NCBI GenBank assembly: GCA_964572155.1
Contig: CAZNDZ010000001.1
Location: 1,274,786 to 1,338,785, forward strand
DNA length: 64,000 bases
Direction of reading: 5' to 3'
Source: an uncultured Planctomycetales bacterium
GTDB lineage: Bacteria; Omnitrophota; Gorgyraeia; Zapsychrales; Fredricksoniimonadaceae
The notes beneath the pieces are model-generated. The model was not told where the DNA came from and searched no databases. It saw only the letters and a program-made list of their open reading frames with translations. A program made the translations under genes and the position numbers. Below are positions 37,886-44,156 of the stretch, piece by piece (position 1 is the stretch's first letter; every line of letters begins with the position of its first letter).

Positions 37886-38305
37886 ATGAAAAATTTCCGC
37901 AAAGAACTCTGGTTTAACACCAAAACACGTCGGGCTTATATTAATATCACCTCACAGGTTCAAGATGCGATCAATGATAGCGGCATCAAAGAGGGTTTGT
38001 GTTTGGTTAATGCCATGCATATAAGCGCGTCGGTTTATATCAATGATGATGAAAGTGGTCTTTTGCACGATTATGACCGATGGCTAGAAGGTTTAGCCCC
38101 GCATGCTCCTGTTTCGCAATACAAGCATAATGACACCGGTGAAGACAATGCCGACGCCCACTTAAAACGCCAAATCATGGGCCGCGAGGTGACAGTGGCC
38201 GTTACCAATGGCAAATTAGATTTTGGACCATGGGAACAAATTTTTTATGGAGAATTCGATGGTATGCGCAAGAAAAGGGTTTTAATTAAAATCATTGGTG
38301 AATAA
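37886..38305 (+). CDS. yjbQ: secondary thiamine-phosphate synthase enzyme YjbQ (UPF0047)
   Basis: Full-length collinearity with YjbQ family. Confidence 0.75.
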
Positions 38306-38315
38306 AACTAACCGC

Positions 38316-38543
38316 ATGCAGATAACCATAAAAGTCATCCCAGCCGCCCGTCAAAATCTTTTCAAAGAAGAGGGTGACATCATCAAAGTCTATCTAACAG
38401 CCCCAGCCGTAGACGGTAAAGCCAATTCAGCCTTGATCAAATTCTTATCTAAGCACTATAATGTCAATGTAAGTCGTATTGAAATCCTTAAAGGTAATAA
38501 AGCTAAAATCAAAGTTGTGTCTATAGATAAGAATATTGCTTGA
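38316..38543 (+). CDS. DUF167 (YggU) family protein
   Basis: …VYLTAPAVDGKANSALIKFLSKHYNV… signature; internal start at 38316. Confidence 0.65.
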   Translation: MQITIKVIPAARQNLFKEEGDIIKVYLTAPAVDGKANSALIKFLSKHYNVNVSRIEILKGNKAKIKVVSIDKNIA

Positions 38544-38572
38544 TTTTGATGTTTATGGTATAAAAACTTCAA

Positions 38573-38646
38573 ACAGTTTCCCCCAAAACTGTATAAAATT
38601 ATCAATATATTCAAATCCCCCGAAAACTCATTTTTTTATTAACTTG
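38573..38646 (+). promoter_or_regulatory. conserved upstream element copy B: 7-bp-stem hairpin with CCCCCA loop, 20-nt gap, AAATCCCCCGAAAACT box, T-rich + ATTAA
   Basis: Paralogous to 9651-9728 with compensatory stem changes. Confidence 0.5.
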
Positions 38647-38700
38647 AAAACGCCCATTAATGTGATACAATTGTATATACAAATGGGTTAGAAGGGGAAT

Positions 38701-38970
38701 ATGGATAGAATTCGCTTCAGCCCAATTAAAGATTTTCTAATAAAGCAGAAATATGGCGTCTCATTTGAAGATGTATTAAGTGGTGAATTGGTTGATGAAA
38801 TTGAACATCCAAAGAGAACTAATCAGAAGATATTGATTTTTGAATATAAGAATTACCTTTGGTCGATTCCATTTGTAGTTGAACACAAGGGGATTTTCTT
38901 GAAAACACTGTATCCTAGTCGTAAATTAATGAAACGATACAAAAGAGGAAAAAATGATAAAGAAATATAA
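38701..38970 (+). CDS. BrnT-like (DUF497) toxin, second copy of the family
   Basis: …KQKYGVSFEDVLSGELVDEIEHPK…ILIFEYKNYLWSIPFVVEHKGIFLKTLYPSRK matches the BrnT pattern; overlaps downstream RHH gene. Confidence 0.55.
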   Translation: MDRIRFSPIKDFLIKQKYGVSFEDVLSGELVDEIEHPKRTNQKILIFEYKNYLWSIPFVVEHKGIFLKTLYPSRKLMKRYKRGKNDKEI

Positions 38971-39208
38971 TTTATCCAAATATGAGCAATCTATTGAAAA
39001 CACTATTGATGAATACGTTCCTGTATCTAGAGCTAAGTTTGAAGCAACGAAGAAAATGTTCGAAGCTAGAAAAAAGAATGCTGTTTTAAATATTAGAATC
39101 AATCAAGGTGATTTAGATAGTCTTAAGGACAAAGCAAAGAAATTAGGTGTTAAATATCAAACTTTTATTACAGAAATCCTTCATAAAGTAGCCATCACAG
39201 GTGAATAA
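38954..39208 (+). CDS. BrnA-like RHH antitoxin
   Basis: …[33 protein letters not shown]…. Confidence 0.55.
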
Positions 39209-39419
39209 CCAAATCCACAATCCAGATCCTCTGCACGGCGTAACCCTCGAGATGATCCTCACCCGACTGGTAGAAAAGTATGGGTGGGAGGGGATGTATA
39301 ATCATGTTAAGATCAATTGTTTTCAAAAAGACCCAAGCATCAAATCAAGTCTAACTTTTCTTAGAAAAACACCGTGGGCCAGAGACAAGGTCGAAACCTT
39401 GTATCTTAAAACCTTTTGA
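39201..39419 (+). CDS. DUF2132 (VF530-like) protein
   Basis: [21 protein letters not shown]…[26 protein letters not shown]. Confidence 0.6.
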
Positions 39420-41015: not shown

Positions 41016-41156
41016 ATGAAGATCACTACTTTAACGATCATACTATTAATAGGCATCTTTACATTTTCTCAATTGGCCCAAGCAAAAGGGCGAACTGGGA
41101 GTCATCGGACTTATCATGGTCATGGGAAGGGGAGTTTCTATAAGGGTGGAAAATAG
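41016..41156 (+). CDS. small secreted peptide (46 aa): signal peptide + Gly/His/Lys/Tyr-rich 23-aa mature region
   Basis: AAAAGGAG RBS 6 nt upstream of ATG; MKITTLTIILLIGIFTFSQLAQA|KGRTGSHRTYHGHGKGSFYKGGK; not in ORF track (under 60 aa). Confidence 0.4.
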   Translation: MKITTLTIILLIGIFTFSQLAQAKGRTGSHRTYHGHGKGSFYKGGK

Positions 41157-41172
41157 GGAATGGAGTTTCAAT

Positions 41173-41658
41173 ATGTTTGAACAATTCAGAAATCATCCAG
41201 AATTGAAATGGAATGCTTCTCCAGCTGGACAATTCTATTCAGACGCTGATAGGTTGAATATAAATATTAATTTGAAAGATTTCACTCTAGAAAGAATAGT
41301 TGATTTAAGAGAACAGGTTGAGAATGAGGGCTCTGCTAAGCTAATGTTAATTGGAAGCAGTAACACAAATATATTTGTATATGGTCCAAATAATTTAATA
41401 AATCTTTTGTATCATACATTACAGAGATACAAGGCAAGATTCTGGTCCAAAATAATTAATATTACTTTAAACGATCATCAGAATTGCGCTAACTTGTTAG
41501 TTCCTACGAAATGTGATCCATGGGTTATTGATAAACTTGAATTAAAAGAGATGAAGAGGGGGGCGGTTACGCCATGCACTACTACTTCCGATTTAGAAAA
41601 AATTTATGAAATATGTGTTCATTGTGAGAATTTTTTAAAAGAAAGGGATCTTCGTTAA
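41173..41658 (+). CDS. hypothetical protein, first large gene of the TIR cassette
   Basis: No recognisable domain; track ORF starts at 41116 but would overlap the peptide gene, so an internal start (41173) is assumed. Confidence 0.45.
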   Translation: MFEQFRNHPELKWNASPAGQFYSDADRLNININLKDFTLERIVDLREQVENEGSAKLMLIGSSNTNIFVYGPNNLINLLYHTLQRYKARFWSKIINITLNDHQNCANLLVPTKCDPWVIDKLELKEMKRGAVTPCTTTSDLEKIYEICVHCENFLKERDLR

Positions 41659-41666
41659 GGTCTAAA

Positions 41667-42554
41667 ATGGAAAAAATATTTCAGTATGATGTAACCTTAA
41701 GTTTTGCAGGCGAAGATCGTAAATATGTAGAGCAAGTTGCTCAAAAACTCAAGGCGCAAGAAATTAAAGTTCATTATGATGAATTTAATGAAATTGATGC
41801 TTGGGGGAAAAATTTACCAGAAAATTTTGACCGTATCTATCGAAAAGACTCTCGTTTCTGTGTCATGTTTATTTCCGGAGACTACGCTAAGAAAGCTTGG
41901 CCCACCTTTGAAAAAAGAAGCGCTTTAGACCGAGAAGTTATCGAAAATGGTTATATTCTTCCAGCTCGTTTTGACGATACAGAAGTTTTAGGAATTCCGC
42001 CTTCCAAGTCTTATATTGATCTTCGTAAATATAGCCCTAATGAATTCGCTGAACTGATTATTAAAAAAATAAGTAAGACTCAATCAATAAAAAATGTGTT
42101 TGAAACAACAGCTTTTCGCCGTCCCAAGATCACCAAATCATTCGATCCTTATAAAGAATCACAAGTTTGGGTAGAATATCTGATTAAAGAGTTAGAGAGT
42201 CGTTGTGAAGATTCAGGAATATCTTTTAGTCATTTTCTTCGCGATGGTAAACAATGTTTAAGATTTGTAATTAACGGCAAACCTGTTTATTCCATTAATA
42301 TTAAATCAGGCTCTCTTTATTTGGACCAAGGATTAAGTTTTAGTTATGCGCATGGAGAAATGTCAGCAATTCTAGATGGCATTAATGCATTTGGTGAATT
42401 TGATTGGAATAAAGACAGGGAATGTATAGTTTTAAAACTTAATGATTTTAGTGTTTTTTCTCGGTCATCTAGCGAACGGCAAGAATTTACGAAACTAGAA
42501 TTTCTTGATTACATTTGGGAAAAAGTTTGTAACGCCACAGAAGAAAAAATGTAA
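41667..42554 (+). CDS. TIR-domain protein with unknown ~150-aa C-terminal domain
   Basis: YDVTLSFAGEDRKYVEQVAQKL…IKVHYDEFNEIDAWGKNL…SRFCVMFISGDYAKKAWPTFE closely follows the DVFLSFRGEDTR … S-x-NYA-S-WCL-EL TIR pattern. Confidence 0.75.
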   Translation: MEKIFQYDVTLSFAGEDRKYVEQVAQKLKAQEIKVHYDEFNEIDAWGKNLPENFDRIYRKDSRFCVMFISGDYAKKAWPTFEKRSALDREVIENGYILPARFDDTEVLGIPPSKSYIDLRKYSPNEFAELIIKKISKTQSIKNVFETTAFRRPKITKSFDPYKESQVWVEYLIKELESRCEDSGISFSHFLRDGKQCLRFVINGKPVYSINIKSGSLYLDQGLSFSYAHGEMSAILDGINAFGEFDWNKDRECIVLKLNDFSVFSRSSSERQEFTKLEFLDYIWEKVCNATEEKM

Positions 42555-42613
42555 GGAAAGACTCCCCATATTAATGAGCAGCTCTTACATAACTAATAAG
42601 AAAATCTATTTAA

Positions 42614-43372
42614 ATGTACCCTAAGCATTTTTTTGAACAATTTTGGGAATCTGAACAACGAAATGAATTATTTGTTTGTATGCCATTTCATAGTTCTTTA
42701 AATTATCGTTTTAACCAAGTAATTAAAGTCGCTGCTAAAAAGGCAGGTTTCGATAACGCCATAAGAGTTGACGAGGATACCTCAGGAAATGTAATAATCA
42801 CAAAAATTTTAGATGGAATTGCAAATTCAAAAATGGTTTTAGTTGATTTATCAGACGATCCAAGTTGCAAAGAACGACATGTAAATGGAAATGTTTTATA
42901 TGAAGCAGGTATCGTTCATGCTATTAGAGAACCTGATGCATTAATAATTGTACGAGATCAAGGTCCTGAAGGTGTCGATTTTGATATTCGAGGATTTACA
43001 ATTAATACGCCGCCTAATAATGTTATTGAAGAAAAATGGTTGATTGAATTATTGAAGAATAGTCTAGAAAATTATCAATGGTTTATTGGAAAGCGAATAA
43101 AGTCTACGGCAGAATTAATTGATGATATTAGTTTGCTTCTTATGGCTAAATATGGAGGTGATAAGAATACTTCAACACATTTTAATAGTGCTAATATGGA
43201 TGCAAAGTATAAGATATCTATTATGAGGCTTTTAGAATTAGGAATTTTAAGATTTCAAACTGCAAGAAATAATAACCCTTTAGAGCATGCTTATCATTGG
43301 ACTGATTTTGGTTATGAAGTAATGAAATATCTTCACATAGAAAGGCAAAATCCTGGTATTCGCTTATCATGA
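42614..43372 (+). CDS. nucleoside 2-deoxyribosyltransferase-like / SLOG-class Rossmannoid domain protein with unknown C-terminal domain
   Basis: LFVCMPF… then …MVLVDLSDDPS…NGNVLYEAGIVHAIREPDALIIV mirrors the NDT (PF05014) signature ADLSG…NPNVMYELGYAHALGKPV. Confidence 0.55.
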   Translation: MYPKHFFEQFWESEQRNELFVCMPFHSSLNYRFNQVIKVAAKKAGFDNAIRVDEDTSGNVIITKILDGIANSKMVLVDLSDDPSCKERHVNGNVLYEAGIVHAIREPDALIIVRDQGPEGVDFDIRGFTINTPPNNVIEEKWLIELLKNSLENYQWFIGKRIKSTAELIDDISLLLMAKYGGDKNTSTHFNSANMDAKYKISIMRLLELGILRFQTARNNNPLEHAYHWTDFGYEVMKYLHIERQNPGIRLS

Positions 43373-44049
43373 CAACATTAGAAATAATTGATAATGTTAA
43401 AGAGCGTGGGTGGACATTTCGCCAAAGATTTAAAGGGAAAAGTAATAAAATCCTACTTATTTTTTCAAAAAGAAGTGCCGAAGATTATGGAGAAAGGAAT
43501 TGTGTGAATTTTTATGCTCTTAAAATCGATCACGCAAATAGCTATTCTGATATTTATTTTAAATATGCAATTACAGCGAGTGCTTTAGCTACACAAAAAA
43601 TAGCAGATATAGTAGGTGATCCTGAAGCTTATATTATTAATTCCGGCTTGTTTCGTTTTAAAAAATTATTAAAAGATAGCGATGAAGTTCGTAAGTTCCC
43701 TGATTTATTGCTGAGTAGCGATTCTTCTGAATCGGAATATGCTATAGATTTACTTCAAGGATTAGATATAGAAATAAATAGAGTACGTTTTGAAGTCCTT
43801 GATTTTTTAAGACGTAATAAATATTTGGGTAGAGAATCATTAAATCTTATAGAGATTGCAGATGTGATTTGTTCAGACCAAACTATAGTTGATACCGTTT
43901 ATCGTGACTTTGAAGAAAATGGCCTTATTAAAGGAGCTTACGGAAATAAAGGTGTAAAAATTACTGTAGAAGGTGAAAAATATTTAGAAAAAATTAAAAA
44001 TGAGCAAATGGGTATAAACTTTGGTTCAGAAGGAACCCATAAATGGTAG
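43369..44049 (+). CDS. hypothetical protein, last gene of cassette (start overlaps previous stop)
   Basis: No recognisable domain; C-terminal region could be wHTH-like. Confidence 0.45.
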   Translation: MTTLEIIDNVKERGWTFRQRFKGKSNKILLIFSKRSAEDYGERNCVNFYALKIDHANSYSDIYFKYAITASALATQKIADIVGDPEAYIINSGLFRFKKLLKDSDEVRKFPDLLLSSDSSESEYAIDLLQGLDIEINRVRFEVLDFLRRNKYLGRESLNLIEIADVICSDQTIVDTVYRDFEENGLIKGAYGNKGVKITVEGEKYLEKIKNEQMGINFGSEGTHKW

Positions 44050-44129
44050 AGTAAGTCGCAATATTAACTTCCTATAATATATGTTATGTTAAGTAGTTAT
44101 ATAGGAAAGTGCTAAAATAGGCAAAAAAT

Positions 44130-44156
44130 AACCCCTTGGTTTCCCAAGGGGTTTTT
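44130..44156. terminator. strong bidirectional rho-independent terminator (10-bp GC-rich stem aaccccttgg/ccaaggggtt, loop tttc, T-tracts both sides)
   Basis: Read directly between convergent genes. Confidence 0.8.

Follow-up and report, generated by a model that had tools for sequence, protein, structure and literature searches.

A block of closely spaced genes was analysed in a 64,000-nucleotide stretch of contig CAZNDZ010000001.1 (assembly GCA_964572155.1, uncultured Planctomycetales bacterium), here called the window. An earlier reading made without database searches (the sequence-only reading) had described positions 41016–44156 as a five-gene cassette and a candidate Thoeris-like anti-phage signalling system. 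All five open reading frames (ORFs) were found on the + strand where that reading had placed them, and their tight packing, their AT-richness and the bidirectional terminator behind them were confirmed. In order, the genes are pep46 (41016–41156; a 46-aa ORF beside the block proper), pA (41173–41658; 161 aa), TIR295 (41667–42554; 295 aa), pC (42614–43372; 252 aa) and pD (43369–44049; 226 aa). pA is separated from TIR295 by 8 bp and TIR295 from pC by 59 bp, and the pC stop and the pD start share an ATGA overlap. The intrinsic terminator (44130–44153), scored on both strands, has a 10-bp stem with six G-C pairs, an A-run on its 5′ side and a T-run on its 3′ side, and ends both the block and a convergent MauE/DoxX membrane protein gene; the other flank is a Methyltransf_11-type S-adenosylmethionine methyltransferase gene. 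GC content is 0.324 in the block and 0.400 on average in the window, and among non-overlapping segments of the same size the lowest value elsewhere is not below 0.370. The stretch from about 41160 to 44050, with pA, TIR295, pC and pD, looks like a small horizontally acquired anti-phage islet. The reading favoured here, and held to be rather likely, is that it consists of two independent TIR-superfamily modules lying side by side and probably co-transcribed, not of one system.

Linkage between the genes was examined in loci fetched around relatives of pC and TIR295. For pC, 24 genome loci and 5 further ones (29 in total) were used with up to 10 kb on each side; for TIR295, 80 metagenome loci were fetched, 19 of them with a full-length relative, and 3 more brought the full-length set to about 22. 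BLASTP, phmmer and a hidden Markov model (HMM) of the pD module were run against the six-frame ORFs of all fetched loci. Within the DNA fetched, a TIR_2 protein was found in 0 of the 29 pC loci, and pA, pC or pD in 0 of the approximately 22 full-length TIR295 loci. Since TIR295 is unlinked to pA, pC and pD in the sampled loci outside this genome, the cassette is not a conserved unit; among the four genes only the combination of pC and pD recurs, in Planctomycetia. Both the pC and the TIR295 families sit in defence islands, as had been expected from the sequence, and because their neighbours there are variable both behave as self-contained defence-island genes. The proposal of a single Thoeris-like system is not supported by these counts.

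The N-terminal domain of pC (aa 1–134) has a TIR/NDT Rossmannoid fold (NDT, nucleoside 2-deoxyribosyltransferase) with invariant residues D78, N93, E97 and R105; the catalytic-type Glu97 lies within an NVLYELG motif and is invariant in the family alignment. Three lines of evidence, each weak but all in agreement, put this domain closest to the Cap12/PycTIR class. In Pfam, PF10137 was the sole family touched, at 17.1 bits with the whole protein and 18.7 bits with the N-domain (gathering threshold 24.7), and a precomputed PF10137 match is present in about 10 of 101 pC homologues. The only profile match in the PDB was SfSTING, a Cap12 TIR-STING protein (E 0.28), with NVLYELG aligned to NVVFEFG. 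The top Foldseek matches were SfSTING and other TIR-STING structures (4e-4). The C-terminal domain (aa ~140–240) is helical and carries the invariant residues R205 and W229; it is built of three or four helices with a beta-hairpin behind them, has no match in Pfam, and judged by secondary structure alone looks like a winged helix. Profile-profile comparison of pC with canonical TIR_2 and with DUF4062 was negative: no PF13271 match was found in Pfam, and hhalign gave a probability of 0.1 against a DUF4062 N-terminus. A role of pC as a SLOG sensor was ruled out by fold and profile evidence, no SLOG or LOG structure or family being among the matches and no SLOG/LOG fold with a glycine-rich GGxGT-type loop being recognised. 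The description of this protein as NDT/SLOG-like thus stands for the Rossmannoid fold and the conserved Glu; the SLOG part fell, and the nearest relatives are the TIR domains of Cap12 and Pycsar.

The pC family comprises about 100 clusters from Planctomycetota, Zixibacteria, bacteria of the candidate phyla radiation (CPR) and DPANN archaea. Its members adjoin TdeIII restriction endonucleases (3 loci), DNA methylases, Mrr, GmrSD (2 loci), Vsr, Lhr helicase and integrases. All-versus-all BLAST of the neighbourhoods returned no constant neighbour, only small clusters such as the TdeIII endonuclease (3 loci) and an integrase (3 loci); neither a CD-NTase nor a pyrimidine cyclase was found in the cassette or among the annotated neighbours of the homologues, and a search of plasmids for pC gave no match. 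Most homologues are about 275–290 aa long and end in a conserved tail of about 30 aa (…EFEKS-PEY…ALKA…; alignment A1, columns ~320–372). The tail is missing from the short forms, namely the pC proteins of the window and of the Planctomycetia that are paired with pD, and P0008; the last of these is also without pD. A protein sharing the domain was seen in Dorea phage DO134P1 (OP172779.1; L117 3465–4334), where a gene upstream of the terminase genes codes for a hypothetical protein of 289 aa with 33% identity to pC aa 19–140. It has weak matches to both PF05014 (NDT) and PF10137 and so bridges these families.

Structurally, pC is as near MilB, Rcl and NDT as it is to TIR domains, so a nucleotide substrate is possible. 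It could accordingly be an N-glycosidase of the NDT/Rcl/MilB type that, alone or with pD, hydrolyses (modified) deoxynucleotides or excises bases, with the winged helix binding nucleic acid. The NGNVLYELG stretch resembles the catalytic-Glu motif of Rcl and NDT, the Dorea phage protein reaches PF05014 weakly, and among the neighbours of the family GmrSD and Mrr recognise modified DNA. Against this, neither whole pC nor its sub-domain matches the NDT profile PF05014, and PF10137, the one family touched, is passed by several homologues; the top structural matches and the single PDB profile match are also Cap12 TIR-STING proteins. This alternative is considered unlikely, although it keeps more weight than the others discussed below.

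The partner of pC belongs to a rare family. pD has an N-domain (aa ~1–145) and a weak winged helix-turn-helix (HTH) signal at aa ~155–215, with weak matches to MarR, Crp, CggR_N and HVO_A0261_N. A word-indexed search returned no relatives, and an exhaustive phmmer search returned 27 among 1.84 billion representatives. The closest (44% identity) is encoded directly 3′ of a 68%-identical pC in Planctomycetia (L003, L108–L110), on three contigs that fall into two types by their upstream context; with the pD-module HMM, pD-like neighbours in the pC and TIR295 loci were found only in the window and in these Planctomycetia loci. Comparison of L108 (1–6684) with L109, which is the same as L003 (1–6125), showed the pC-pD pair and the downstream genes in common and the upstream DNA different: one contig carries pyruvate:ferredoxin oxidoreductase genes there, and the other carries MmeI-type restriction-modification (R-M), DarT, Macro (DarG-like) and two more genes. 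This indicates a variable defence hotspot beside the Planctomycetia pair.

Apart from this closest one, most pD relatives carry a C-terminal TIR_2 domain or are truncated inside it, and in at least 12 of 21 the module is fused to a TIR of the PDC-S66/ThsB1 class. The TIR part of these fusions matches the PADLOC model PDC-S66 at 1e-40 to 1e-63, over the C-terminal TIR region of the model only (positions ~128–280 of 282), and also matches the ThsB1 model; pD of the window itself matched no PADLOC model. One family member, P0239 (412 aa), has a PDC-M14B-like C-terminus in place of the TIR, so the C-terminal partners of the pD module are of more than one kind. Because the module is fused to TIR elsewhere, adjoins a TIR-like gene in two phyla and is translationally coupled to pC here, it is linked to TIR-superfamily enzymes as a sensor or adaptor; it does not look like an effector. 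pC and pD are a true pair, coupled in translation in the window. The sequence-only reading had suggested that the NDT-like protein may be the signal sensor or processor and one of the unknown proteins the effector; these roles are probably reversed, pC being enzyme-like and pD being TIR-fused elsewhere.

TIR295 was correctly recognised from the sequence as a true TIR protein: aa ~6–130 match TIR_2 (PF13676) above the Pfam gathering threshold, and the catalytic-type Glu82 is invariant across the family alignment. Its conserved C-domain (aa ~160–295) has a helix/antiparallel-sheet/helix fold and is frataxin/CyaY-like; no match to this domain was found in phages. Against the PADLOC models, TIR295 gave a match to PDC-S66 (6e-18) that covers the TIR part only, with residues 6–99 on model positions 148–239 of 282, and a weak one to ThsB1. 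Close relatives (55–68% identity), or most of them, begin at the hsdM stop codon or overlap it, within type I R-M operons, and HsdM adjoins TIR295 relatives in 7 loci. Within about 15 bp 3′ of these close relatives a conserved 47-aa zinc-ribbon ORF (KCKRC...FEPGEAE...CPEC) was found in 8 of 8 cases with downstream DNA; close relatives followed by this ORF were noted in L028, L030–L033, L037 and L112–L114, for example at L112 5001–6047. hsdM and the zinc-ribbon gene are both absent from the window. Together, the TIR gene and its zinc-ribbon ORF are candidates for a two-gene module carried within R-M systems; nothing specific to the TIR295 family came up when the literature was searched for TIR genes within type I R-M operons. 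Other relatives adjoin BREX PglZ/BrxL, a DUF4062-STAND protein, CBASS, ThsB TIR genes and AbiE. L112 (1–10888) is a dense defence island with CBASS (SMODS, HORMA, AAA+), a type I R-M operon and three ThsB_TIR/TIR_2 genes, and the TIR295-like gene and the zinc-ribbon gene are embedded in its R-M operon.

On the favoured reading, the first module would be TIR295, a stand-alone TIR with a frataxin-like C-domain, present here as a solo copy preceded by the orphan pA. The second would be pC-pD, in which pC would be a TIR/NDT-like N-glycosidase of the Cap12/PycTIR class (catalytic-type Glu97) with a winged-helix-like domain. A phage cue would be recognised by pD, by the C-domain of pC or by both; pC would then assemble into an active form and hydrolyse NAD+ (or a related nucleotide), and the loss of NAD+ would stop phage growth by abortive infection. 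TIR295 would act separately as a sensor-plus-NADase, with the frataxin-like domain as the sensor. In TIR-STING proteins, binding of the ligand to the C-domain drives filament formation and NADase activity. The mechanism proposed for pC, which probably depletes NAD+, is drawn by analogy with TIR-STING and with Swarozyc. The DUF4062 protein Swarozyc provides a single-protein precedent for a TIR-like NADase with an auxiliary sensor, and its auxiliary domain senses the phage portal (bioRxiv 10.64898/2026.05.01.722283); stand-alone TIRs have likewise been treated as likely NAD+-depleting effectors (bioRxiv 10.64898/2025.12.03.692087).

Several points weigh against this two-module interpretation. 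The four genes are tightly packed before a single terminator and are probably co-transcribed, and cooperation specific to this lineage is possible. Adjacency of pC and pD was seen in two lineages only, and most pC homologues occur without pD. Many TIR295 loci are short contigs, and at least 1 kb of downstream DNA is present in only about 8 of them. pA is an orphan that two modules do not account for. The domain identities, the conserved residues, the linkage and its absence and the defence-island contexts are shown by the analysis; the substrate and trigger of the enzymes, their NADase activity, an interaction of pC with pD and the defence function itself are proposed from these.

In the single-system alternative, TIR295 would convert NAD+ into a nucleotide signal for pC to bind or process, with pD or pA serving as the effector. 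The co-directional packing, the common low GC and the one terminator speak for it, as do the catalytic-type Glu and the weak ThsB1 and PDC-S66 matches of TIR295; the fold of pC resembles Cap12 TIR-STING, whose C-terminal domain reads a nucleotide signal, and TIR295 of the window, lacking its usual zinc-ribbon partner, has room for a new one. The zero co-occurrence in the pC and TIR295 loci stands against it, and homologues of pC have neither a TIR_2 gene (phmmer) nor a cyclase among their annotated neighbours; the Planctomycetia pair is present without TIR295, and pC is not a SLOG protein. Fusion of pD modules to TIR is the build of ThsB-like sensors and not of effectors. GC content at third codon positions (GC3) is also unequal between the two halves of the block: it is 0.265 in pA and 0.226 in TIR295, 0.178 in pC and 0.172 in pD (0.23–0.27 versus 0.17–0.18), compared with 0.31–0.40 in neighbouring genes. 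A single Thoeris-like system is therefore regarded as improbable.

An equally poor chance is given to the view that pD is a mere winged-helix repressor of the cassette with pC or TIR295 acting solo, or that the block is a decaying remnant without function. The weak MarR, CggR_N and Crp signals in the C-terminus of pD speak for this view, as do the pC homologues, most of which work without pD, the loss of the usual genomic partners of TIR295 and the orphan state of pA. Covalent fusion of pD modules to TIR or PDC-M14B-like domains is atypical for a simple repressor, however, and the ORFs are all intact, the copies in the window keep the family-invariant residues and pC and pD are translationally coupled. 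Least probable of all is a rewiring in this lineage in which the solo TIR295, no longer accompanied by its family's zinc-ribbon and R-M partners, would produce an NAD+-derived signal. Either pD or pC's non-catalytic domain, which stands where STING does in TIR-STING, would read this signal and switch on the Cap12-class enzyme; this would amount to a TIR-to-TIR cascade without SLOG, Macro or cyclase.

The remaining features lie at the edges of the block. pep46 has a strong Shine-Dalgarno sequence (AAAGGAG, 6–7 nt 5′ of the start), a signal-peptide-like N-terminus (…FSQLAQA|KG) and a Gly/His/Lys-rich tail of 23 aa. With a GC of 0.40 and a GC3 of 0.383 it is at the level of native genes, and because of this composition the compositional boundary is at about 41160 instead of 41016 and pep46 is likely to lie outside the acquired DNA. 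Homologues were found in none of the fetched loci, the peptide being seen only in the organism of the window; it is probably not one of the acquired genes, although it adjoins them, and has no detected link to the four AT-rich ones. The ORF of pA begins at 41116, and the public gene call starts at ATG 41173, which has GGAG upstream. pA had no match in Pfam, PADLOC or NCBIfam, and relatives were found neither among the other fetched loci nor on plasmids or viral contigs; it too was seen only in the organism of the window. The surroundings of the block showed neither a tRNA nor an integrase, nor flanking direct repeats of a convincing kind, and no empty-site contig with an identical flanking methyltransferase was found. 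In a promoter scan, sigma-70-like sites were less frequent than in shuffled controls, and none lay upstream of the block. The whole 64-kb window contains zero tRNA genes and zero Rfam families at the gathering threshold. A second AT-rich islet lies at 38250–39250 (GC 0.29–0.34) and holds two overlapping ORFs, 38701–38970 (89 aa) and 38954–39208 (84 aa). The 84-aa protein exceeds the Pfam cutoff for CopG_antitoxin (30.2 bits) and matches BrnA weakly; the pair is probably a type II toxin-antitoxin system, and the islet suggests that this stretch accumulates acquired genes.

TIR-superfamily enzymes have a central place in bacterial, plant and animal immunity, and new triggers and signals keep emerging from new pairings of sensors and effectors. 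Three uncharacterised families were brought together by this locus: pC; the rare pD module, which occurs fused to TIR or encoded beside pC; and a large family of TIR proteins that have a frataxin-like domain and are found, along with a zinc-ribbon partner, inside type I R-M operons. That pD exists both split and fused constitutes a Rosetta-stone case, from which a two-component TIR-like system can be predicted and tested; the pC-pD pairing and the hsdM-TIR-zinc-ribbon arrangement are both concrete testable candidates. Tight operon-like packing in a defence islet is no evidence of a single system.

The two modules were compared with known systems. No paper describing the pC, pD or TIR295 families was found in the literature, and in PADLOC 2.0 these families were unmatched as such, save for the generic TIR part. 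The single-gene TIR candidate PDC-S66 has a TIR region in common with TIR295 and with the pD-TIR fusions, but in TIR295 the TIR is N-terminal and the second domain is another one, and the protein does not match the model over its full length. In Thoeris the TIR protein produces a nucleotide signal (a cADPR isomer or His-ADPR) by which the effector is activated. TIR295 resembles this system in being of the TIR_2 type with a catalytic Glu, and the pD fusions do so in that their TIR part matches ThsB1 and PDC-S66; in Thoeris, however, the ThsB TIR gene is conserved next to its cognate effector (criterion as in bioRxiv 10.64898/2025.12.03.692087), whereas TIR295 is not conserved beside any gene of the cassette, and the cassette contains neither SLOG nor Macro nor another effector known to bind a signal. 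Swarozyc/DUF4062 (NIR) proteins follow the logic proposed for pC and TIR295: they combine a TIR-like domain that has a catalytic Glu with an auxiliary domain sensing a phage protein, and they are located in defence islands. The differences are that no PF13271 match and no profile similarity were found, that the auxiliary domains are not the same, and that pC has a coupled partner gene. NDT, Rcl (DNPH1) and MilB differ from pC in profile (PF05014) and in context, pC being found in defence and R-M islands and not in nucleotide salvage or antibiotic biosynthesis. pC is built like Cap12 (TIR-STING) and PycTIR of CBASS and Pycsar (PF10137), with a TIR-like enzyme domain at the N-terminus and a non-catalytic C-domain behind it. 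In pC, by contrast, this C-domain is helical and winged-helix-like instead of a STING, SAVED or cNMP-binding domain, the score lies under the Pfam cutoff, the partner gene pD is separate, and the cyclase or CD-NTase gene that adjoins such effectors in CBASS and Pycsar is absent from the cassette. The most fitting description of the block is a pair of neighbouring abortive-infection modules, each an uncharacterised variant within the TIR superfamily.

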